From Patescibacteria group bacterium (GTDB lineage Bacteria; Patescibacteriota; Minisyncoccia; Phycocordibacterales; SBAW01): a stretch of 64,000 nt of DNA. The stretch is from contig JACOWS010000002.1 of the NCBI GenBank assembly GCA_016176685.1, positions 94,608-158,607 of the forward strand, in the 5' to 3' direction. The position numbers were made by a program, and so were the translations under genes. Positions 1,213-62,436 of the stretch are shown piece after piece. How positions within the stretch are numbered: the stretch's first letter is position 1; the number at the start of each line of letters is the position of its first letter. The notes below the pieces were generated by a model that did no database searches, was not told where the DNA came from, and saw only the letters and a list, made by a program, of their open reading frames with translations.

Positions 1213-1265
1213 TTCTAACAAGCCTATCACAATTCTTCAGCCACGATACCACAATAATACTGCTA

Positions 1266-1300
1266 AACCTTATTATCCACGACCGTTGTAACTAAGGTTA
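1266..1300. repeat. cassette-1 flanking element, copy A (AACCTTAttatccaCGACCGTTgtaacTAAGGTTA)
   Basis: 7-nt terminal inverted repeat AACCTTA/TAAGGTT. Ends 4 nt from the stop codon of the 1305..1886 gene. Confidence 0.7.
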
Positions 1301-1304
1301 ACGA

Positions 1305-1886
1305 CTAAAGACCGAACCACTGTCGCAACTTCTGATCGTTCTCTATCCCTTCTGCTATAAGATATATAACTCCACCACCAAGTCGTAAATCCACTCTCAA
1401 AAAAGCAACGAGCTCTTCGCAGTCAAATGGACATATCCATACACTATTTTGAATACGCCGGAATCCCGCCTTTTGTAAAGCGAGGCGTAATTTGTCACGC
1501 ATTAGCCGGCGACTTTCCCAAATATCAAACATGACTATCCTCCACTTTCCATCCCACGTTTTTGGAACGCGTATGCGAATATGCTCGGCCGCATGCAACT
1601 TTTCTGCATGCGCCATTCCCTTTTCAGTAAGAGTGGCCGACCAGCCCTGCACGCCTTTCTTCCATTGTACCAGGCCTTTTTGCTCGAGCCGGCGAACGGC
1701 CTGCCTTAGCCGCCGTGTCAGCGTTCCTCTCGTAGATTCTGGGAAAAGATGTTTGCGTAGAACCGCCTCAGGGGCAAGGGCGGCACGCGCGTTTCGGGCA
1801 GTTAAACGAAAAATAGCCAGCGTGATTTTTTGTTGGATTTTCTCCCGTCGCGCGCGCTGTGCTATTTTTTCTTCCAGTTTTTCCAT
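1305..1886 (-). CDS. PaaX-like regulator-type protein: N-terminal winged HTH + C-terminal Cas2-like fold domain (paralog 1 of 3)
   Basis: 193 aa. wHTH-like segment LTRRLRQAVRRLEQKGLV. C-terminal W-D-G-K-W-R-I-V-M-F-D-I...LQKAGFRRIQNSVW matches the Cas2/PaaX-middle-domain pattern (hhVhYD....R......L...G.R.Q.SVF). Paralogs at 39728..40318 and 53698..54280. Confidence 0.7.
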   Translation of the reverse strand: MEKLEEKIAQRARREKIQQKITLAIFRLTARNARAALAPEAVLRKHLFPESTRGTLTRRLRQAVRRLEQKGLVQWKKGVQGWSATLTEKGMAHAEKLHAAEHIRIRVPKTWDGKWRIVMFDIWESRRLMRDKLRLALQKAGFRRIQNSVWICPFDCEELVAFLRVDLRLGGGVIYLIAEGIENDQKLRQWFGL

Positions 1887-1887
1887 G

Positions 1888-1922
1888 AACCTTAGTATAC
1901 ACGACCGTTACACTTATGGTTA
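1888..1922. repeat. cassette-1 flanking element, copy B (AACCTTAgtatacaCGACCGTTacactTATGGTTA)
   Basis: 28/35 identical to copy A. Starts 2 nt from the ATG. In gene orientation it provides TGTATACT 7 nt upstream of the ATG, a leaderless-type -10. Confidence 0.7.
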
Positions 1923-2017
1923 GTTTAATAAAATATACAAACATGGCATATCTATAAAATAAAGTGAGCGCGCAGTGGTAAGCTACGCGCCCGAGAAAAA
2001 CCTGGAACAGGGCTCGA

Positions 2018-2754: not shown

Positions 2755-3960
2755 ATGCGCATCTCTTTTTTTGCCGACAATTTTTACCCGGAACTCTCCG
2801 GGATCCCCGACTCTATCCTCATAACCGGCAAAGAGCTCGTGCAACGCGGTCATCAGGTGTGCTACGTGGCGCCGCACTATGGCGCGCGCGATTACGAAGT
2901 AGTCGCGCGCGCACTGCCCCAGAGGCCGGAGTACCTCGAGGGTATGCCGGTTTTCCGGCTTCCTTCGATACCGCTTCTGCGTTCGCCTACCGGACAATCG
3001 CGTATCGCGCTCCCTACCGGACGCTCCTTTTCTTTTTTGCACGCGTTCAAACCCGACATACTCCATACACACAGCCCTTACGGCGCAGGGCTCGAGGCCC
3101 TGCGTGCGGCGAAGATGTTACGCGTGCCGCTTGTAGGGACAAACCATACGCCGGTTGAAGAATTTTATCGTTTTGCACCAAACATCGCGCGGCGGCTGGA
3201 CGCATGGTATTACAACCATTGTGCCCTCATCACCACGCCCTATCAGGGACTCGTCTCCCGCATGCAAGAGAAGGGTTTTAAACGCCCAGGCCGGGCAATG
3301 CCCAACCCGTTGGAGTTGTCGCTTTTTTATCCTGCAAGAAACGAAGAAGAAAGGGAGCATTTGCGTGCAGAAATGGGGCTTTCTGGACCGGTTGTCATAT
3401 ACTCCGGCAGGCTCGCGAGTGAAAAGCGTGTTGATGTTTTGCTCCACGCGATCAAATTATTGGTCCCAAAGTTCCCTTCCCTCACGCTCCTTGTAACGGG
3501 GCTCGGGATTGAGGCCCATTCTCTGCATACGTTGGCGCAAGAGCTTGATATAGAGGGGCGCGTGCGCTTTACCGGGTTTGTACCGCAAGACGAGCTGGCG
3601 CGCTACTATCGCGCTGCGGACGTCTTTGCCATCATGTCTACAGCCGACAGCCAGTCACTCTCTCTTATGCAAGCATATGCAACCGGCATACCGGCCGTGT
3701 GCGCGGACAGCCGCGGACTCCATGACTACACGCCGAGCGACTGCGGATTTTTGGTAGAGCCGGGCAACCACCACACCTTGGCAGGAAAATTGAAACTTCT
3801 TTTAAACGACTCCGCCTTGCGCGAGCGCATGGGTAAGGCGGCGGCGACTTTCGTTAAAACATTCTCCCCCGAAAAAATCGTAACGGAGTGGGAGAAAATC
3901 TACCGCGACGCTATTGTCCGAAATCTTTCTTTAAAAACTGCGAGCGTACAGAGTGGGTAA
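2755..3960 (+). CDS. GT4 (group 1) glycosyltransferase
   Basis: 401 aa. GT-B C-terminal domain with an E..E-like motif region (YSGRLASEKRVDVLL...GIPAVCAD). Confidence 0.85.
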   Translation: MRISFFADNFYPELSGIPDSILITGKELVQRGHQVCYVAPHYGARDYEVVARALPQRPEYLEGMPVFRLPSIPLLRSPTGQSRIALPTGRSFSFLHAFKPDILHTHSPYGAGLEALRAAKMLRVPLVGTNHTPVEEFYRFAPNIARRLDAWYYNHCALITTPYQGLVSRMQEKGFKRPGRAMPNPLELSLFYPARNEEEREHLRAEMGLSGPVVIYSGRLASEKRVDVLLHAIKLLVPKFPSLTLLVTGLGIEAHSLHTLAQELDIEGRVRFTGFVPQDELARYYRAADVFAIMSTADSQSLSLMQAYATGIPAVCADSRGLHDYTPSDCGFLVEPGNHHTLAGKLKLLLNDSALRERMGKAAATFVKTFSPEKIVTEWEKIYRDAIVRNLSLKTASVQSG

Positions 3961-4510
3961 TAAGATAGTAGATGCCGAATACGACCGCGGTGGCGGCGAT
4001 CAATATTTCCACCCGCACAAGCGTGCTTTCGACGGTCGCAAAGTATCCGCCGAAAAAGTATCCAAGCCCTATCAAAACCGTGTATTGGAAGACGGCGAGG
4101 ATTGCGCTGTATCGCCAAAAAATCTTAAACGGCAAGTGTACCAATCCTGCGCTGATGAGAAGCGGGGTCGAGAGTCCGTACGCAAACTTGGTGATAGCCA
4201 TAGCTTTGAACGGATGTGAGTGCCAAAGACCCCGTACCATTTCGAAATGCTCGGGAGTTATGCGCAGTTTAGGGCCAACCCTTTCGATGAGCGATTTTTT
4301 CTTTCCCCACCGTCCGAAAAAATAATAACCAATGTCGGGAAGTACGTCGGCAAGCACCAGCGTCACAAAGAGCGGCAGTGGGTGGAAGTACCCGAGCGGC
4401 ACCAAGGACCCCGTGATGAAGCCGAGCATCGGGCCCTCGAGGCTCGCCAAGGGAAAGAGTATGAGGTAGCGGTATTGCTCGAGGAGCGCGATAATTGTGG
4501 CAAGTTCCAT
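3911..4510 (-). CDS. DedA/SNARE-associated family membrane protein
   Basis: 199 aa. LILFPLASLEGPMLGFITG motif typical of the DedA family. 4-5 TM helices. Confidence 0.75.
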   Translation of the reverse strand: MELATIIALLEQYRYLILFPLASLEGPMLGFITGSLVPLGYFHPLPLFVTLVLADVLPDIGYYFFGRWGKKKSLIERVGPKLRITPEHFEMVRGLWHSHPFKAMAITKFAYGLSTPLLISAGLVHLPFKIFWRYSAILAVFQYTVLIGLGYFFGGYFATVESTLVRVEILIAATAVVFGIYYLITHSVRSQFLKKDFGQ

Positions 4511-4569: not shown

Positions 4570-5235
4570 ATGACTATAGAGGTCTGGCACGTGCGCCTGT
4601 GGCGGCGCTATCAGGAAAGCTGGTTTGACAAGTCTTTTCGCTTCTCTGCGCCGTTCGCGCTTTTGTTTTTTACGTTGTCGATAGTTGCTAACTACTACGC
4701 GGGTATATACGCCACCAGCCGTGCGAGTAACTATGTGGAGGATATTGTGCTTTCTAACATTCCTGCTCTTGATGTAGATATTTTCTTTGTGTATGGAGCC
4801 GTACTGCTTGTCGCTGTTATTTTTTGGCTCTGCTTTGAAAACCCCAAGCGTATCCCTTTCTTACTTCACTCTCTCACGCTGTTCATATTTATACGTGCAG
4901 CATTTGTCTCCATGACCCACCTCGGCCCCTTTCCGACCGCAATACTCGTAGACGACGTACAGATTTTTTTCAGCAAATATTTTCTTTTCGGCGGAGATTT
5001 ATTTTTTTCTGGGCACACGGGGATCCCCTTTCTTATGGCTCTTATGTTCTGGCACCGCCCGATGCTGCGATACTTGTTTCTTGCGTGGTCGGTATTCTTC
5101 GGCGTTATTGTGCTACTGGGCCACCTGCACTACACAATAGATGTGGCTTCGGCGTTTTTTATCACCTACGGCATTTACCACTTGGCACTGTGGATATTCC
5201 CCCGCGAACGCGCGCTATTTTTGTCCGACCGATGA
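4570..5235 (+). CDS. PAP2_C / sphingomyelin-synthase-like membrane protein
   Basis: ORF 4495..5235. Contains GGDLFFSGHTG and HYTIDVASAFFITYGIYH, matching the SMS D3 (C-G-D-x3-S-G-H-T) and D4 (H-Y-T-x-D-V-x3-Y...Y-H) motifs. Start probably at MTIEVW (~4570). Confidence 0.65.
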   Translation: MTIEVWHVRLWRRYQESWFDKSFRFSAPFALLFFTLSIVANYYAGIYATSRASNYVEDIVLSNIPALDVDIFFVYGAVLLVAVIFWLCFENPKRIPFLLHSLTLFIFIRAAFVSMTHLGPFPTAILVDDVQIFFSKYFLFGGDLFFSGHTGIPFLMALMFWHRPMLRYLFLAWSVFFGVIVLLGHLHYTIDVASAFFITYGIYHLALWIFPRERALFLSDR

Positions 5236-5282
5236 GCAGTTTTCCACCTGCCGGGTATACTCTTTTCAACTTTTGCCGTGTA

Positions 5283-5546
5283 CTAACTGCCCCTCTTGTA
5301 TATATCGTCAAGTCGCACGATATCGTCTTCGCCAAGGTAGCTCCCTGTTTGTACCTCCACTAACTCTAGTTGGATTTTGCCGGGGTTGCCGAGGCGGTGT
5401 AGAGCCCCCATCGGTACATATATGGACTCGTTTTCGTGCAGCAGTCTTTTTTCTTCATTGACGGTTGCTTCTGCCACACCGCGCACCACCACCCAATGCT
5501 CGGAGCGGTGCAGGTGTTTTTGGAGTGAAAGTATCTCACCCGGCAA
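5283..5546 (-). CDS. manC: C-terminal cupin (type II phosphomannose isomerase) fragment of manC, frameshifted relative to upstream ORF
   Basis: [18 protein letters not shown]...[33 protein letters not shown] matches the ManC C-terminal cupin. The same frame continues upstream ([16 protein letters not shown]) to ~5585 with no ATG/GTG start, overlapping the 3' end of the upstream ORF. Confidence 0.6.
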
Positions 5547-27385: not shown

Positions 27386-27446
27386 AACAAAAACCCTCCG
27401 CGCAAGAGTAAGGGTCGCGTGTATCTCTCCGGAGCGGAGGGTTTTT
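27386..27446. terminator. palindromic element at the dsbA-like / nuclease convergent junction (family element A)
   Basis: AAAAACCCTCCGCgcaagagtaagggtcgcgtgTATCTCTCCGGAGCGGAGGGTTTTT. Outer stem CCCTCCGC/GCGGAGGG. Homologous to 43861..43936. Confidence 0.5.
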
Positions 27447-39676: not shown

Positions 39677-39716
39677 TTTACCATATATACCGCTATAGCA
39701 TTGTTTATGGTAAATA
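39677..39716. repeat. cassette-2 flanking element, copy A (TTTACCATATATACCGCTATAGCATtgtTTATGGTAAATA)
   Basis: 37/40 identical to copy at 40324..40362. Terminal inverted repeat TTTACCATA/TATGGTAAA. Ends 11 nt from the stop codon of the 39728..40318 gene. Confidence 0.7.
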
Positions 39717-39727
39717 CCTTGTTGCAT

Positions 39728-40318
39728 TTATTCTAAATCAAAATGCTGTTTAAGGTGTTTATCGTTCTCTAATCCTTCCGCAATGATATATAGAATGCCC
39801 GACCCAAGCTTTAGATCACTCCGTATGAATGCAATAAGTTCTTCGCAGGGATACGGGTGTACCCAGACGCTGTCTTGCAACATATAAAATCCAGCTTTCT
39901 TAAGGATGTTTCGCAACCGCTCTCGAACTTGCTTGCGTTTCTCCCACACATCAAAAATGACCACCCTCCATTTTCCATCCCATCGACGCGGCTGGCGAAT
40001 TTCTATACGACGGACAACCTCAAGCCGTTCGGCAAATTTCTCACCCTTTGTGGTCAATAGTATTCTCCACTCCTTCCCTTTTCCTTCTTGCTGAACAAGA
40101 CCACGAGACTCTAGACGTCTTACAGCTTGTTGGATACGATACCCAGGCTTACGTTTTTTTGCGAGGTCTGGATCAATGCGCTTTAACAGCCTGAGAGTGT
40201 TTGGAGCTAGTAGCACCATAGAAAGTGCGGCCGCACTGTACAGAGCAAGGACGAGGCCATCCTGTACTCGAACTCGTTTAGTAATTTTTCGGCTTCGCTC
40301 CTCTAACTGCCCCATCAC
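39728..40318 (-). CDS. PaaX-like wHTH + Cas2-fold protein (paralog 2 of 3)
   Basis: 196 aa. RRWDGKWRVVIFDVWEKRKQVRERLRNILKKAGFYMLQDSVWVHPYPCEELIAF. About 45% identical to the 1305..1886 protein over the C-terminal half. Confidence 0.7.
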   Translation of the reverse strand: MMGQLEERSRKITKRVRVQDGLVLALYSAAALSMVLLAPNTLRLLKRIDPDLAKKRKPGYRIQQAVRRLESRGLVQQEGKGKEWRILLTTKGEKFAERLEVVRRIEIRQPRRWDGKWRVVIFDVWEKRKQVRERLRNILKKAGFYMLQDSVWVHPYPCEELIAFIRSDLKLGSGILYIIAEGLENDKHLKQHFDLE

Positions 40319-40323
40319 TCCAG

Positions 40324-40362
40324 TTTACCATATATACCGCTATAGCATAAATTATGGTAAAT
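40324..40362. repeat. cassette-2 flanking element, copy B
   Basis: Direct repeat of 39677..39716. Begins ~5 nt upstream of the GTG/ATG start. Confidence 0.7.
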
Positions 40363-40410: not shown

Positions 40411-41088
40411 CTATGCAGGCTTGCTGCGCTTTTTTTGCTTCCAGCTATCCATGTTGGCGTGGTGGCCGGAAAGGAGCACTTTGGGGACCCGGTACGACTT
40501 CCCTCTTACCTTCAAAGCTTCTGGGCGGGTATATACATCGTGGCTGGCTACTCGCGACTCTTCCAGTGACTCAAACTTCCCCAACACACCCTTAAGTTGG
40601 CGTGCTGTGGCGTCTATAACAGCTAGTGCTGGCACCTCGCCGCCGGTCAAAATGTAGGGACCTACAGACACTTCCTGTGCTTTTAGTATCTTTTTTGCAC
40701 GTGCATCGATACCCTCATATCGGCCACAGACAATGATGACATCTTTTTGTTTAGTAAGTTCTTTGGCGTAAGCGTTTGTCAGAGGTTTGCCGCCTGCCGC
40801 GGTGATAATCACCTTGGCGCGAGGCTTGTTCTCTTTTATCTTACGCACCGCCGCTAGTATCGGTTCGGCGCGCAAAACCATACCCGGGCCGCCGCCGTAG
40901 GGACGCCCGTCTACTTTGCCCCACTTGTTGCCTGCAAAGTCGCGCAATTGGTAGGTTTTAACCGACAAAATTTTCTCCCGCCGGGCAGAGCTCTCTGGGC
41001 GGCGCCTTTTTTGCGCGCGGCCCAAAATAGACGCGCTCGTATACGCCTCTATTACTTTGGGAAAAAGAGTGACGACGTGAAAATTCAC
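40411..41088 (-). CDS. trmD: tRNA (guanine37-N1)-methyltransferase
   Basis: 225 aa. SPOUT knot motifs YEGIDAR, GGEVPALAVIDA. Confidence 0.9.
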   Translation of the reverse strand: MNFHVVTLFPKVIEAYTSASILGRAQKRRRPESSARREKILSVKTYQLRDFAGNKWGKVDGRPYGGGPGMVLRAEPILAAVRKIKENKPRAKVIITAAGGKPLTNAYAKELTKQKDVIIVCGRYEGIDARAKKILKAQEVSVGPYILTGGEVPALAVIDATARQLKGVLGKFESLEESRVASHDVYTRPEALKVRGKSYRVPKVLLSGHHANMDSWKQKKRSKPA

Positions 41089-43861: not shown

Positions 43862-43936
43862 TTGGGCGGAAAAGTCCTCCGTGCAGGAGTAGGGCTCTTG
43901 TTTATCTCTCCGGAGCGGAGGACTTTTCCGCCCAAC
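43861..43936. terminator. 21-bp perfect stem-loop filling the rnr/smc convergent junction (family element B)
   Basis: GTTGGGCGGAAAAGTCCTCCG ... CGGAGGACTTTTCCGCCCAAC. The loop carries TATCTCTCCGGAGCGGAGG, shared with the element at 27386..27446. Confidence 0.5.
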
Positions 43937-53617: not shown

Positions 53618-53657
53618 ATGTAATATTTACTACACTATAGTTTCTTATTTATTACAT
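53618..53657. repeat. cassette-3 flanking element, copy A (ATGTAATatttACTACACTATAGtttcTTATTTATTACAT)
   Basis: Direct repeat of 54283..54322 (shared ACTATAG..TT.TTATTTATTACA). Terminal inverted repeat ATGTAAT/ATTACAT. Confidence 0.6.
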
Positions 53658-53697
53658 TCCTCTTACCTTATTAAGATGGTGTTGCGGTAGCAGGATA

Positions 53698-54280
53698 TTA
53701 GCCGAGTCTGAAGTGGATGCGCAGAGCCCGATCGTCTTCCACCCTATCAACGATCAGATACAAGACATCCCTACCCAATCCAAGCTCCGCTTTGAGTAAA
53801 ACAACAAACTCTTCACAATTATATGGATATATCCATACGCTATCCTGGAGTCGCACAAAACCGATACCAGTAAGTATTGCCCGCACCTCGCCACGGAGTG
53901 CGTCTTTCAGGGATATCAAAAATCACAACGCGCCACTTTTTATCCCATTTTTTGGGTTTTTTTACCTTGTAGCCGCGAAGTTCCCATTGAGCTACACAAT
54001 TCTTTCCTTTTTTAGTTAGTACAACAAAGGATCCCCGACGGGTCTTTTCCATCATAAGAAATCCCCCTGCGACGAGTCTGGAAATTGCTTTTTTTGTTTG
54101 ATATTTTTTCTGCCGTTCGTACTGCTTCAAAAAAGGTTTTAGCATTGATAGAGCGTTTGGGGCTATGAGTGCTGTGGAGATTACTCCAACCGCAGCTACC
54201 GAGCCGAGTACGGCACGCCGGACAGTGGTCATGCGCATTTTTTTCCGCAGGTCTTTCTCAAGAGATACAGGTGGTTTCAT
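53698..54280 (-). pseudogene. PaaX-like wHTH + Cas2-fold paralog 3, disrupted by a frameshift near 53900-53920
   Basis: Two overlapping ORFs. 53840..54280 ends ...KWDKKWRVVIFDIPERR (then out of frame). 53698..53919 is the C-terminal half ...LRGEVRAILTGIGFVRLQDSVWIYPYNCEEFVVLL. Restoring one A in a GAAAGA run reunites them. Confidence 0.55.
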
Positions 54281-54282
54281 AC

Positions 54283-54322
54283 TTGTAGCGGATAACCTAC
54301 TATAGAATTTTATTTATTACAA
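54283..54322. repeat. cassette-3 flanking element, copy B
   Basis: TTGTAgcggataaCCTACTATAGaattTTATTTATTACAA. Begins 3 nt upstream of the start codon. Confidence 0.6.
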
Positions 54323-54374
54323 TAAGTTTCGATTTGTCACAGATTTGCCACATCAGACTGGTATCAGGAAACAC

Positions 54375-58283: not shown

Positions 58284-58399
58284 AGCGACGCCGCAAAAAC
58301 AAATAAAAAAGAGAGTCTAAGACGCGACGGCGTCGAGGCGAGGGAATTTATCAGCAGGAAATTCCCGCTCTCTTTTTTATTTGTTTTTGCGGCGTCGCT
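58284..58399. terminator. large bidirectional cruciform terminator between the 57380 gene and gyrB
   Basis: 32-nt arms AGCGACGCCGCAAAAACAAATAAAAAAGAGAG / CTCTCTTTTTTATTTGTTTTTGCGGCGTCGCT with nested hairpins GGGAATTT-9-AAATTCCC and CGACGGCGTCG in the loop. Confidence 0.5.
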
Positions 58400-60419
58400 A
58401 AATATCCAAGTTTGCCAACTTTGCGTTGGACTGGATAAACGACTTGCGGCTTGAGACATCCTCGCCCATCAAAATGTCGAAAACTTGGTCAGCGTCGGCG
58501 GCGTCTTCTACCGTAACCTGTTTGAGCACGCGCCGCGCCGGGTCCATGGTGGTTTCCCACAGCTCCTCCGGGTTCATCTCGCCCAAACCTTTGTAGCGTT
58601 GGATGTGGAGTTTGGATTTTTTGCCGGAACCAGATGGAAAATCACCTTCTGACGAGCGCAACGCGGCGTCTTCGGCAGTGAGCGAGGAGGAGGGTGATTT
58701 TCCATCTGGTTCCTCGCCCTCGCCTTCATCAACCACCTCTTCCTTGCCGACAAATTTCGCCTTTTCTTCCTCGCTGTAGGCGTACACCACCTCCTTGCCC
58801 TTTTTTATTTTGTAGAGCGGCGGCTGTGCGATGTAGAGGAATCCGCCGTCGATAACCGGCTTAAAGTGACGGAAGAAGAGGGTTAGCAGGAGCGTGCGAA
58901 TGTGCGCACCGTCTACGTCGGCATCGGTCGCGATAATAACCTTGTGGTAGCGCAGTTTGGTGAGGTCGAACACGTCGCCTATGGCGGTGCCGAGCGCCAG
59001 TATCAAATATTTAATTTCTTGGCTCGCGAGCATTTTGTCGAGCCGCGCGCGCTCGACGTTCAAAATCTTTCCGCGAAGCGGCAAAATCGCCTGGGTGCGG
59101 CGGTCGCGCCCCTGCTTGCCGGAGCCGCCTGCCGAGTCGCCCTCGACGATAAACAGTTCCGACTCGCTCGCCTCTTTGCTTTGACAGTCGGCCAATTTGC
59201 CCGGCAGGCCAAAACCTTCGAGTGCTCCCTTGCGCAAAACGGAGTCTTTGGCCGCCTTGGCGGCTTTGCGCGCCTTGAGCGCCAGCGCCGCTTTGCCAGC
59301 CATGGCGCGCGCATCCTCTGGATTTTCTTCCAAAAAGGCGGCGAGCTGTTCGCTCACTACACTTTCAACCGCGCCGCGCGCCTCCACACTCCCCAGCTTT
59401 GCTTTTGTCTGGCCTTCAAACTGCACCTCGCGCAGCTTCACCGAGATAACGGCGGTCAGACCCTCAAGCACGTCGTCGCCGGTAAAGTTCTCTTCGCTGT
59501 CTTTGAGTGCTCCAACTTTGCGCGCGTAGGCGTTGAGTGTGCGGGTAAGCGCTGTGCGAAATCCGGTGATGTGCGTACCTCCCTCGCCGTTGTATATGTT
59601 GTTTGCAAACGGGGAAATGAGTGAGCGTAAGCCCCCCTCAAAATAAAAAGATTGCGACGGAAAATCGGTGAGATAGTCGCGCAGGTACAACTCTTTGCCA
59701 ACCTCGGTAAAAGCAATAGTACTTGTGCGCGCGTCTATTATGGTGATGCGCAGACCTTTTACCAGGTATGCCTGCTCGCGCAGGTGCGAAACCACTTTGT
59801 CGAAGTCGTACTCGATTGTTTGAAAAATTTCAGGGTCGGCGGTGTAAGTCTGGACCGTGCCGTGGAGTTTGGAGGTACCAACTTTTTTGACAGCTACCTT
59901 GCGCTTGCCGCGCACATACTCTTGTACATACGCCGCGCCCTCGCGGTGCACCTCGGTGCGCATCCAAATTGAAAGTGCGTTTACTACCGACACGCCGACG
60001 CCGTGCAACCCTCCTGAAACCTTGTACCCTTCGCCGCCAAACTTGCCGCCGGCGTGGAGCGTGGTCATCACCGTCTCGAGAGCCGAGACTTTGGTTTGTT
60101 TGTGGGTGTCTACCGGGATACCGCGGCCGTTGTCGGCGATGCGAACGACATTGTTTGGCAAGAGAACCACCTCGATATCGTTGGCAAAGCCGCCCATTGC
60201 CTCATCGCGGCCGTTGTCGAACACTTCCCAAATGAGATGGTGCAAGCCGTCAGGACCGGTGGTGCCGATGTACATGCCGGGGCGGCGACGTACCGCCTGA
60301 AGCCCCTCGAGTACGGTAATGTCCTCGGCGCTATACCTATGGGGTTTTTTCCCCTGCGCGTCTTTAGGAGTTGTTTTTTTAGCCTTGTTTTCAGCCACAA
60401 AATTGAAGAAAGCCCACAC
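58398..60419 (-). CDS. gyrB: DNA gyrase subunit B
   Basis: 673 aa. GHKL ATPase, Toprim, acidic insertion near C-terminus. Confidence 0.9.
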   Translation of the reverse strand: MWAFFNFVAENKAKKTTPKDAQGKKPHRYSAEDITVLEGLQAVRRRPGMYIGTTGPDGLHHLIWEVFDNGRDEAMGGFANDIEVVLLPNNVVRIADNGRGIPVDTHKQTKVSALETVMTTLHAGGKFGGEGYKVSGGLHGVGVSVVNALSIWMRTEVHREGAAYVQEYVRGKRKVAVKKVGTSKLHGTVQTYTADPEIFQTIEYDFDKVVSHLREQAYLVKGLRITIIDARTSTIAFTEVGKELYLRDYLTDFPSQSFYFEGGLRSLISPFANNIYNGEGGTHITGFRTALTRTLNAYARKVGALKDSEENFTGDDVLEGLTAVISVKLREVQFEGQTKAKLGSVEARGAVESVVSEQLAAFLEENPEDARAMAGKAALALKARKAAKAAKDSVLRKGALEGFGLPGKLADCQSKEASESELFIVEGDSAGGSGKQGRDRRTQAILPLRGKILNVERARLDKMLASQEIKYLILALGTAIGDVFDLTKLRYHKVIIATDADVDGAHIRTLLLTLFFRHFKPVIDGGFLYIAQPPLYKIKKGKEVVYAYSEEEKAKFVGKEEVVDEGEGEEPDGKSPSSSLTAEDAALRSSEGDFPSGSGKKSKLHIQRYKGLGEMNPEELWETTMDPARRVLKQVTVEDAADADQVFDILMGEDVSSRKSFIQSNAKLANLDI

Positions 60420-60565
60420 AGGCTTTACCTATTTATTATACCAAATACCGGCCTATTTTGAAAGGGTGTGGATAGCCAATCCACCTTGCAAAACAAGGGT
60501 TCTAGGGGAGCGACCGGCACTTTGTTTTTTAAAGTCTATTGTATAAATAGGGTCAATTATAAATT

Positions 60566-60600
60566 AACCTTAATCGTAACGACCGTTATAGCTAAGGTTA
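60566..60600. repeat. solo copy of the cassette-1 element (AACCTTAatcgtaaCGACCGTTatagcTAAGGTTA)
   Basis: 28/35 identical to 1266..1300. Lies in the pheT-gyrB intergenic region with no adjacent PaaX-like gene. Confidence 0.6.
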
Positions 60601-60621
60601 AAATGTTTTAAATAATTGATG

Positions 60622-62436
60622 CTAGCGGATATCAAGCCCTTGTGCCTGGAGAGCGGCGTGAACCCTTGCCATCGCCTCATTTGCCTCTGCTTCGGTCAAC
60701 GTCCTTTCAAACGACTGGAAGACAAGTCGAAACGCCAGCGACACTTTTCCCTCCCCGCCCGCCCGCCCGGAGTCGTCCGGGCGGGCGGGCTTCTCAAACC
60801 GATCAAAGAGATATACACGCACAGCAAGATGGCCCGCTTCCTTTGCGATGTGTTTTTCGATTTCCTCGATTTTTACTTCTCCTGTGGTCCAAAACGCAAT
60901 ATCACGGACGATGTACGGATAGCGTGAGTACGGCTGGTAGCGCCGCGCAGTCGAGAGCGGAAGACTCTCATACGCTGAGGCTTTCTCCGGCTGCAGTTCT
61001 TTTTCTGATACTCCTTCCTTTTCATTAGCGGTGCCGATCATTATTTTTTCCTCACCTTCTTTCCAGACCGTCCCGATTTCAAAAAGTTTTATTTCCTCGA
61101 GCCCGAGTAGATCTTTATTCGGTCTGTTTTTTTCAATAGCCGCCTGAAGCCCCGGGATCAGGCTCTCGCGCAGGTATGGACGCACGCTGTCTACTTTGTT
61201 TAAGACCGCATACTCGCCCGCCTCGGCAAAGACGCTGGTGTACACCTCGCTGTAACCTTGCGCAGCAAGCTCTTCGCGGACCCGCTCTGCGGTATAAAAA
61301 TTTGGGTTTACTGTTGCCCCCTCTGCATATACCGGCAAGGGAATTTCCGGAATCTTGTCGTACCCAACTATCCTCCCCACCTCTTCCACGAGGTCCTCGG
61401 CAATTTCAATATCTAGTCGCTCAAACGGCACCACCACCTCGAACTTCCCCCCTTCTTCTTTGTAGTTAAAACTTAATCGAGAAAAGACATCTGCAACCTC
61501 CGCACCTGTGAGCTTTGTCCCAAGGACGTTGTTTACTTTATCTACCGAAATCTCGACTCTTTTTTCTTTCTGGGGTGCGGGGTACACATCCACAAACCCT
61601 TCCGCCGCTCCGCCGGACAACTCTACAATAAGTTTTGCCGCCTGGCGCATACCATACCCCGCAAGTTCCGGTGAAAGTCCTTGCTCAAAGCGTATTGAGG
61701 CATCAGTGCGCAGTTTAAGGAGCTGTGAGCTTTTGCGGACAGAAAAACTGTTGAAGTTAGCCGCCTCTATGACGATGTTTTGCGTCGTCTCGTCTATCCT
61801 ATCGGCCATGCCACCCTTAATGCCTGCTATTCCCACCGGGCGGTCTGCGGCGGTAATAACCAATGTGGAGCCTCCAAGCTCGTACTCTTTTTCGTCGAGT
61901 GCTTTGAGTACCTCGCCTTGCCGCGCGAGGCGCACGCCTATGGCGCTGCTCCCGAGCCGCCCCGCGTCAAAAGCGTGCAGGGGCTGGCCCAGGTTAAACA
62001 TCACAAAATTGGTTGCGTCGACAATGTTATTTATAGCGTGCTGACCCATGGCCGTAAGGCTCTTTTGAAGCCACTCGGGCGAAGGGCCGACCCTTACCCC
62101 CGTGATATATCCCGCCAGATAACGCGGGCACAAGGCCGCATCTTCCACCACCACGGTTACCCGGTCTGTTTTCTTTGATATATCAAACCCGAGCGAAAAC
62201 GGGTCGCGGGTCATCGGGATTTTTAAAATGGCGGAAAGCTCCTTGGCTATGCCGCGGTGAGAGAGGCAGTCGTGCCCGCGGTTGGGGGTAATTTTTACGT
62301 CCAAGATATCGTCACCGTCTATATTTTCTATCCCATCTATCTCAAATGTGTGGAAGGTAAGTGCTTTCGCTAGTATGTCTGTAGACGGGAGTGTTTCATC
62401 AAAAAAATTCTGCAACCACTGGCGCGATATTTTCAT
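60622..62436 (-). CDS. pheT: phenylalanyl-tRNA synthetase beta subunit (shortened, 604 aa)
   Basis: N-terminus MKISRQWLQNF. B3/4, B5, catalytic-like and FDX-ACB domains recognisable. Confidence 0.9.
   Translation of the reverse strand: MKISRQWLQNFFDETLPSTDILAKALTFHTFEIDGIENIDGDDILDVKITPNRGHDCLSHRGIAKELSAILKIPMTRDPFSLGFDISKKTDRVTVVVEDAALCPRYLAGYITGVRVGPSPEWLQKSLTAMGQHAINNIVDATNFVMFNLGQPLHAFDAGRLGSSAIGVRLARQGEVLKALDEKEYELGGSTLVITAADRPVGIAGIKGGMADRIDETTQNIVIEAANFNSFSVRKSSQLLKLRTDASIRFEQGLSPELAGYGMRQAAKLIVELSGGAAEGFVDVYPAPQKEKRVEISVDKVNNVLGTKLTGAEVADVFSRLSFNYKEEGGKFEVVVPFERLDIEIAEDLVEEVGRIVGYDKIPEIPLPVYAEGATVNPNFYTAERVREELAAQGYSEVYTSVFAEAGEYAVLNKVDSVRPYLRESLIPGLQAAIEKNRPNKDLLGLEEIKLFEIGTVWKEGEEKIMIGTANEKEGVSEKELQPEKASAYESLPLSTARRYQPYSRYPYIVRDIAFWTTGEVKIEEIEKHIAKEAGHLAVRVYLFDRFEKPARPDDSGRAGGEGKVSLAFRLVFQSFERTLTEAEANEAMARVHAALQAQGLDIR

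Follow-up and report, generated by a model that had tools for sequence, protein, structure and literature searches.

The locus examined here raises a simple question: why does a palindrome that elsewhere flanks a small gene stand by itself between pheT and gyrB? The element, which we call the solo, lies in a 64,000-nt stretch of the genome of a Patescibacteria group bacterium from the candidate phyla radiation (contig JACOWS010000002.1, positions 94,608 to 158,607; this whole stretch is referred to as the window), and it resembles the two palindromes that flank a gene for a PaaX-like protein (paralog 1) elsewhere in the window. The first-pass annotation, made from the letters alone, had offered two readings, the footprint of an excised cassette or an operator through which the paralog-1 protein regulates gyrB. 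We conclude that the solo is very probably a genuine cognate site of a PaaX-like protein, judging by sequence comparison, and we read it as an orphan: the two-fold symmetric site of short PaaX-family proteins (AACCTTA class), retained by itself. Taken whole, with gene loss as its origin and a boundary function, this reading stands at about an even chance; the loss of a cassette or gene by itself could equally go either way, and a role as boundary or roadblock at the pheST end is a tentative suggestion that we would sooner bet against. The features on which the argument depends are as follows.

60564..60601, no strand assigned: the solo palindrome, recognized in the sequence, by pattern and repeat searches, and as a conserved island in relatives
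60622..62436, minus strand: pheT (Pfam), whose stop codon is the solo's constant neighbor, 16-21 nt away in the window and in the relatives L046, L059, L083 and L036
62440-63225, minus strand: pheS (Pfam)
58398..60419, minus strand: gyrB (Pfam), with a GTG start at 60419
1305..1886, minus strand: the paralog-1 gene (protein P0001), 193 aa, winged helix plus PaaX_M/Cas2-like domain, presumed binder of the AACCTTA-type palindrome
1264..1301, minus strand: copy A, the downstream palindrome, 5 nt past the paralog-1 stop and ~54 nt before the likely ATG (1212) of a GT2 gene
1886..1923, minus strand: copy B, the gene-proximal upstream palindrome, reading ...CGTG-TATACT-AAGGTT-C-ATG on the gene strand

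The solo is laid out as TTAACCTTA (60564-60572), ATCG, TAACG (60577-60581), AC, CGTTA (60584-60588), TAGC and TAAGGTTAA (60593-60601), with 9-nt outer arms (TTAACCTTA and TAAGGTTAA) and an inner 5-nt pair (TAACG and CGTTA) around the common center AC. The sequence noted in the first pass, AACCTTAATCGTAACGACCGTTATAGCTAAGGTTA, is present at 60566-60600, and its reported 28/35 identity to the paralog-1 flanks is exact for copy A (1266-1299), with copy B (1888-1921) matching at 26/35; the 7-nt terminal inverted repeats described there exist, but that length falls short of the 9-nt arms and leaves out the inner pair. The pattern AACCTTA-N15..27-TAAGGTT has two matches in the window and the fuller palindrome pattern (up to three mismatches) has three, at 1266-1299, 1888-1921 and 60566-60599, where shuffled sequence gave an expectation of 0.00 in both searches, and a repeat search of the window grouped copies A and B with the solo as one family (D9). 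The solo lies 21 nt past the pheT stop and 146 nt ahead of the gyrB GTG, in agreement with the earlier figure of ~150 nt, and it has, as had been claimed, no PaaX-like gene beside it: tblastn of the window placed PaaX-like sequence only at 1308-1886, 39734-40315 and 53710-54172.

The PaaX-like genes and their bracketing palindromes

Every PaaX-like gene that we examined carries one cognate palindrome at each end. This bracketing is general among the type-1 genes recovered by our genome and metagenome motif scans, which yielded 16 distinct upstream and 12 distinct downstream copies. It extends to the three paralogs in the window, each with a different palindrome, and to three more distant family members from other assemblies, each bracketed by yet another. 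Because the type of palindrome tracks the adjacent protein paralog, we take the protein to be the cognate binder of the sites around its own gene. The loci of relatives that these scans recovered, in genomes and metagenomes, are given L-numbers below (L007 and so on); about half of the scan matches, which were GC-rich, of the AACCATG type and from Proteobacteria and others, were ignored, since they occurred at roughly chance level (~9 expected, estimated from pattern complexity). The other two paralogs of the window are these.

39728-40318, minus strand: paralog 2, PaaX/Cas2-like, with flanking palindromes at 39677-39715 and 40324-40362 of the form TTTACCATA..GCTATAGC..TATGGTAAA
~53710-54280 (locus ~53618-54325), minus strand: paralog 3, frameshifted right after the FDIPE motif

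Paralog 2 lies directly downstream of trmD (40429-41088, minus strand), and solos of its palindrome type were not found within the window. The flanks of paralog 3 are degenerate (TGTAATA..CTATAG..TATTACA), and this locus is probably a decaying copy, or else a sequencing error.

The upstream copies share a further property. Reading toward the gene, the hexamer before AAGGTT has the form TAnnnT in 16/16 distinct upstream copies (TATACT, TATAAT, TACAAT, TATTAT, TAAAAT, TACTAT and TATATT were all seen), with a mean match of 5.1/6 to TATAAT, whereas in this register the side facing away from the gene matches at 1.8/6, the downstream copies at 2.8/6 and 2.2/6 in their two orientations, and the solos at 2.25/6. 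The start codon follows the motif by 0-1 nt and lies 6-7 nt after the -10 box, which takes up the palindrome's right-hand spacer, so the gene would be leaderless and presumably self-repressed; in copy B both the -10 box and the leaderless start sit inside or at the edge of the palindrome. The simplest reading of these sequences is that a promoter embedded in the upstream palindrome produces a leaderless mRNA, and that protein binding there would shut the promoter off. The solo reads ACGATT in this register (2/6), and it is therefore a site without a promoter; shifting by one base gives TTAACC-17-TACGAT, which reaches only 8/12 and falls below the scan threshold, and we rejected the solo as a promoter.

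The presumed binder combines two folds. Pfam places residues 109-182 of the paralog-1 protein in PaaX_M (PF20803, E 3.9e-20), with a weak Cas2 match as well, and its AlphaFold model (pLDDT 80.6) predicts a winged helix followed by a ferredoxin-like domain, the N terminus forming a winged helix-turn-helix from helices 40-47 and 55-69 and a hairpin of strands 73-78 and 81-86. The best PDB matches in Foldseek were E. coli PaaX (8A39), Rv0674 (3KFW) and 3L09; MarR-type and F-93 winged helices were also returned, and the C-terminal half resembled Cas2 chains (3EXC, 5ZYF). Pfam found no PaaX C-terminal domain in the protein, which ends at residue 193, and against the full-length PaaX equivalog TIGR02277 it scores 44.5 bits where the cut-off is 264.55. 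On the Cas2 profile TIGR01573 it reaches 31.3 against a cut-off of 24.5, in a match limited to profile positions 2-43 of 96. The NCBI records name the protein 'CRISPR-associated endonuclease Cas2' because this partial match lies just above the Cas2 cut-off while the protein falls far below that of the PaaX equivalog; the direct repeats of the window include no array-like CRISPR family, and the name is very likely a mis-annotation of these genes. PADLOC gave partial matches to Cas2 models and nothing else, which led us to reject a defense system, and a phage origin was rejected as well, as the motif is absent from viral contigs and the sole PHROG match is weak (E 8e-4), to a family without known function. 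The PaaX-like family is large, with 552 clusters (50% identity) at E <= 1e-30 and 3446 at E <= 1e-10.

The solo and its counterparts after pheT

The metagenome scan recovered orthologous solos from L046, L059 and L083, which represent one lineage, and from L036, which represents another; their GyrB proteins are 93-95% identical to that of the window, and in all four loci the motif begins 16 nt past the pheT stop. Across the three lineages (the window included) 31/38 columns of the solo are invariant. The corresponding counts are 7/20 for the spacer that precedes the motif, 7/40 for the sequence that follows and 6/13 for neighboring third codon positions. At four-fold sites the window and L046 have an identity of 0.34 in pheT, 0.46 in pheS and 0.67 in gyrB, and the synonymous sites of pheT are saturated. 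All of the variable solo columns (7/7) fall in the two spacers and the central dinucleotide, and a symmetric protein-binding site would be expected to vary in just this way.

We then asked what occupies the same gap in other relatives. A bracketed PaaX-like gene lies between pheT and gyrB in five Kaiserbacteria/Paceibacterota-type lineages, which answers the earlier question of whether relatives carry such a gene here: L007 (Paceibacterota STE_50), L011 (Kaiserbacteria RIFCSPLOWO2_01_FULL_55_19; L041 and L090 are the same locus), L017 plus L022 (the complete Kaiserbacteria chromosome OY969413.1), L034 and L084. In every occupied lineage the gene is antisense to both pheT and gyrB. In L047, whose flanking sequence matches that of its relative L007, the gap holds a solo, one palindrome in place of the bracketed gene, and it likewise holds a solo in the window, L046, L059, L083 and L036. 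The footprint idea is reasonable because recombination between two 34-bp direct copies would leave exactly one, and it stands in the evolutionary sense that relatives carry the bracketed gene at the same spot; what does not stand is the picture of a decaying scar, as the site keeps its position under purifying selection across the clade. The closest outgroup with pheS-pheT-gyrB synteny, L027-L029 (PheT 63-64% and GyrB 68-70% identical), has neither a PaaX-like gene nor the motif in this gap, which is filled by unrelated open reading frames without a Pfam match, and this rules out universal conservation of the site upstream of gyrB. Elsewhere, in a genome labeled Saccharibacteria (L008 5245-5897), a bracketed PaaX-like gene lies antisense between ftsA and ftsZ.

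Solos numbered 34 in our census of the scans, some of them redundant, and 12/34 sit where two convergent genes meet at their 3' ends. Many have their first base at -8 to +31 nt relative to a stop codon, namely those of pheT, gyrB (L079), cysS (L009, L086), msrA (L048, L076), ruvB (L014), doc (L043) and trmD. Copies are few: three in the 64-kb window and four exact matches in the complete 993-kb OY969413.1, two of which bracket the gene. Such a low number is in keeping with a few protein-bound sites, located mostly where transcription units end, and accords poorly with a proliferating repeat of the REP kind. At L042 (3260-3293) and L074 (2981-3014) a solo ends 2-8 nt before the uvrA start codon, and at L048 one overlaps the stop codon of msrA and ends 1 nt short of a zincin metallopeptidase gene. 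The inner AAC-N4-GTT and the proximity of some solos to uvrA, ruvB and dnaB recall a LexA/SOS-type box, a candidate that we set aside as the neighbors also include pheT, cysS, msrA, trmD, clpP, tig and gatC. A motif that appeared to lie inside a coding sequence in L051 was likewise discarded, the apparent open reading frame being an N-terminal over-extension of gatC.

From these comparisons we propose the following mechanism. The winged-helix/Cas2-like protein would bind its palindrome as a dimer, with the Cas2-like domain dimerizing; at its own gene the dimer would occlude the embedded promoter and repress the leaderless mRNA, and the second copy past the stop codon may give the protein an additional anchor point, for a loop or a roadblock. 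The solo may have arisen when the PaaX-like gene at this spot was lost by recombination between its bracketing copies, and it would have been kept because a protein of the same specificity, paralog 1 in the window, still binds it. Once bound, the solo would then mark off the 3' end of the pheS-pheT unit, as a boundary or roadblock, and would not be an operator of gyrB. The broader claim of the first pass, a connection between the PaaX-like proteins and host DNA through this site, holds on this account.

Several observations weigh against this account. The relation between protein and site is drawn from linkage and co-variation only. With L027-L029 carrying neither the gene nor the motif, loss of the gene at this site is not polarized against its gain. 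A few solos abut start codons, those of uvrA (L042, L074) and of the zincin gene (L048), and promoter-proximal regulation fits these better than a 3' boundary does. A solo in frame within trmD of L020 hints that the bare palindrome is mobile. Finally, the conservation of the solo could also reflect an RNA hairpin (-10.7 kcal/mol, z -2.4).

Competing explanations

The best surviving alternative, which we nonetheless consider unlikely, is that the PaaX/Cas2-like gene together with one palindrome moves by recombination at the palindrome, cut by the Cas2-like domain or by a host enzyme, so that solos are empty or vacated sites. In its strongest and similarly unlikely form, these winged-helix/Cas2-like CPR (candidate phyla radiation) genes, each with its own 34-40-bp palindrome, would be, or would recently have been, an undescribed self-contained mobile cassette, the Cas2-like domain with its retained aspartate (Asp) doing the cleaving and the solos serving as vacant attachment sites. 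Occupied and empty versions of one site do exist (L007, L034 and L084 against L047 and the window's clade), and the region after trmD is a second hot-spot, where the window has the paralog-2 cassette and L005, L021 and L060 have solos. In L007 the cassette is flanked by a 300-nt spacer duplication, 97% identical (3950-4249 and 5004-5303), which points to a recent duplication or insertion, or to the assembly of two population variants. The bare motif in L020 (3822-3854) lies in frame in trmD, where it encodes the residues NLNSHGRRNKV, within a 13-aa insertion relative to the TrmD of L005 (80% identical, tblastn). Three copies delimit two modules both in L017 (7662-7695) plus L022 (336-369, 3477-3510) and in L062 (64-97, 657-690, 1070-1103). 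The downstream repeat of L095 holds the vestigial first codons of the gene (ATGGATATTGAGA compared with ATAGAGAATAAGA; repeats of 57 nt, 88% identical, at 1457-1513 and 2090-2146), which suggests that it originated when the promoter-start region was duplicated. Where Cas2 has its YDI motif, the PaaX-like proteins have FDI (at least 90% conserved) and so retain the Asp, unlike Rv0674, which has IVTSI there.

Against such mobility, the position and orientation of the gene are stable across deep lineages, the pheT-gyrB paralog being always antisense, and around the GT2-linked paralog synteny is maintained even where protein identity has dropped to 57-65%. Only four exact copies are present in the 993-kb chromosome, viral contigs contain none, and the solo is conserved in place and not polymorphic. 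From one bracketing copy to the other the central dinucleotide keeps no constant polarity, being the same (GT/AC) in four pairs (window, L002, L008, L013), opposite in three (L001, L007, L017/L022) and symmetric in one (GC in L011), by which we rejected a strict serine- or tyrosine-recombinase-type site. Searches of the PaaX-like protein with Pfam, NCBIfam and PADLOC returned no recombinase domain, and the only integrase met was an IS (insertion sequence)-type rve protein in L017, neighboring genes not having been screened systematically for a dedicated recombinase. Three side observations belong to these loci: in L017 the cassette comes after an IS and a duplicate of the pheT 3' end; the second module of OY969413.1 contains a 984-aa gene with a PG_binding_1 domain; and in L021 three copies of the trmD 3' end (320-366, 495-550, 1230-1292) separate small open reading frames between trmD and rpoB, with the solo just before the third, an arrangement that looks like serial integration at the end of trmD.

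The other proposal of the first-pass annotation made the solo a gyrB operator, at which the bound paralog-1 protein would repress or activate transcription. The solo does lie 101-146 nt upstream of the gyrB start in the window and L046, the promoter-bearing copy faces the gyrB upstream region in the Kaiserbacteria-type relatives, and in L011 that copy ends ~20 nt from the expected gyrB -35. Two features between the solo and gyrB bear on this proposal.

60435..60462, minus strand: predicted gyrB promoter, TTCAAA-16-TG-n-TATAAT, from a promoter scan; conserved in L046, L059 and L036
60505..60520, no strand assigned: half of a terminator hairpin (GTGCCGGTCGCTCCCC on the minus strand), the scar of a deleted ~800-nt convergent gene

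In L036 and L059 that convergent gene (215-218 aa, no Pfam match) and its terminator hairpin still intervene between the solo and gyrB, and the deletion in the gap of L046 is larger than that of the window; since the window retains half of the convergent gene's terminator, its 146-nt closeness to gyrB is secondary, the product of a deletion. The solo lacks the -10 box found in all of the gene-proximal copies, the distance between motif and gyrB ranges from ~75 nt (L011) to >800 nt (L022) among lineages, and in L027-L029 gyrB follows pheT without any motif. Because the predicted promoter lies ~100 nt beyond the solo, counted to its -35, and because the motif-gyrB distance varies, we consider this proposal improbable, and the solo probably does not control gyrB as a dedicated operator. 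A palindrome immediately upstream of the predicted -35, GTGGATAGCCAATCCAC at 60468-60484, has hardly changed in L046, L059 and L036; as a gyrB regulatory site it is a more likely candidate than the solo. Between the gyrB -10 and the GTG, at 60409-60426, AAAGCCTGTGTGGGCTTT followed by CTTCAATTTT forms a hairpin that is kept in relatives and that the scan calls terminator-like; it could be a leader or attenuator structure.

Just as improbable, in our estimate, is an RNA hairpin that works independently of any protein at the 3' end of the pheS-pheT transcript, as a stabilizer or weak terminator, in which case the likeness to the paralog-1 flanks would reflect common descent only. As RNA, the solo forms an A+U-rich outer stem of 9-10 bp and an inner stem of 4 bp with the folding energy given above, the L046 solo folds better still (-17.6 kcal/mol, z -3.8), and both begin 16-21 nt past the stop codon. 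Changes in the arms are also often symmetric within the family (ATCCTTA/TAAGGAT, GACCTTA/TAAGGTC, AACCATA/TATGGTT). Yet copies A and B gain nothing over shuffled sequence when folded (z -0.4 and +0.3), and across lineages assigned to Kaiserbacteria, Paceibacterota and 'Saccharibacteria' it is the arm sequence itself, and not just the pairing, that is kept, which is more typical of protein recognition; the palindromes moreover co-vary with the adjacent protein paralog. An intrinsic terminator was rejected, the terminator scan making no call on a stem that is A+U-rich and ends without a U-tract (tail AAUUUAUAAUU), and a known RNA or tRNA was rejected as well, with 0 Rfam matches in the whole window at gathering thresholds and 0 tRNA or tmRNA by ARAGORN.

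The weakest alternative, a neutral relic left over without present function, would suit the lack of an adjacent PaaX-like gene and a pheT-gyrB gap that is a rearrangement hot-spot with contents differing among lineages, but it is very unlikely because the solo forms an island of conservation amid diverged flanks and synonymous sites (31/38 columns invariant against 7/20 and 7/40; binomial P <= 6e-5 even if the neutral per-column invariance were 0.5).

Known systems and wider meaning

Returning to the preferred reading of the solo as an orphan protein-binding site, we compared the system with known arrangements. By its sequence, paralog 1 is a truncated relative of the PaaX-family repressors, and its gene-proximal palindrome resembles a classic autoregulatory operator. 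It shares with PaaX and Rv0674 (8A39, 3KFW) the winged-helix N terminus and the Cas2-like PaaX_M domain, and as at PaaX operators the palindrome overlaps the promoter of the regulated gene, a likeness that applies to the 16 gene-proximal copies and not to the solo. The CPR protein differs from PaaX in its length (193 aa), in lacking the PaaX C-terminal domain and in having no phenylacetate catabolic (paa) genes nearby, its neighbors being GT2 and PAP2 genes in the window and at orthologous loci; its sites differ in bracketing the regulator's own gene and in occurring as orphans at the 3' ends of housekeeping genes, and the CPR proteins differ from Rv0674 in keeping the Cas2 'YDI'-type Asp. The features that depart from the classic scheme are thus the obligatory second copy past the stop, the paralog-specific palindromes, the orphans at essential-gene 3' ends and the retained Cas2-like motif.

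Four other systems resemble parts of this one. In REP/REPIN-RAYT systems short palindromes of a dedicated family flank a single small gene, the palindromes are paralog-specific, and extra intergenic copies often lie just past stop codons. The CPR genes are likewise flanked by their own palindromic repeat family, with different palindromes for each paralog, but the protein is not an HUH/Y1 transposase (Pfam, NCBIfam and PADLOC returned only PaaX_M/Cas2 when such a domain was looked for), copy number is tiny, and the solos are positionally conserved. Integron attC sites and Xer-pdif modules also consist of small modules bounded by imperfect palindromes of ~30-40 bp, with the same gap empty or occupied; here, in contrast, the protein has no recombinase domain, the center has no fixed polarity, and specificity apparently comes from the encoded DNA-binding protein. 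CRISPR Cas2 is approached in the C-terminal half, which matches Cas2 profiles (31.3 against 24.5) and resembles 3EXC and 5ZYF, although the match does not extend beyond the first ~40 positions of the profile, a winged helix is fused to the domain and the window contains no CRISPR-type array. Rickettsia palindromic elements can lie in frame within conserved protein genes, as the motif does in trmD of L020, but here a single case was seen, with an element of 33 nt and no definable target duplication. Full-text searches of a paper library found no paper describing the bracketed-gene arrangement.

If our reading is correct, the solo would be one element of a simple scheme that recurs in ultra-small CPR genomes: a DNA binder of ~190 aa related to PaaX and Cas2, a palindrome ahead of its gene that is promoter and operator at once, another copy after the gene, and a few orphans at the ends of essential genes (pheT, gyrB, cysS, msrA, ruvB, trmD, uvrA). 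Such a scheme would make it possible to test how transcription-unit boundaries are organized in organisms that have very few regulators. Were the mobile-cassette alternative true instead, a relative of Cas2 would be working on palindromic repeats outside CRISPR. For annotation, the family is now labeled either 'Cas2' or 'PaaX', and the label 'CRISPR-associated endonuclease Cas2' is misleading.

One further repeat was seen in the window. A 58-nt hairpin-like element, AAAAACCCTCCGC...GCGGAGGGTTTTT, occurs in two copies that are 81% identical (27389-27446 and 43870-43927), each at a gene end, and the pair look like terminator-type repeats.

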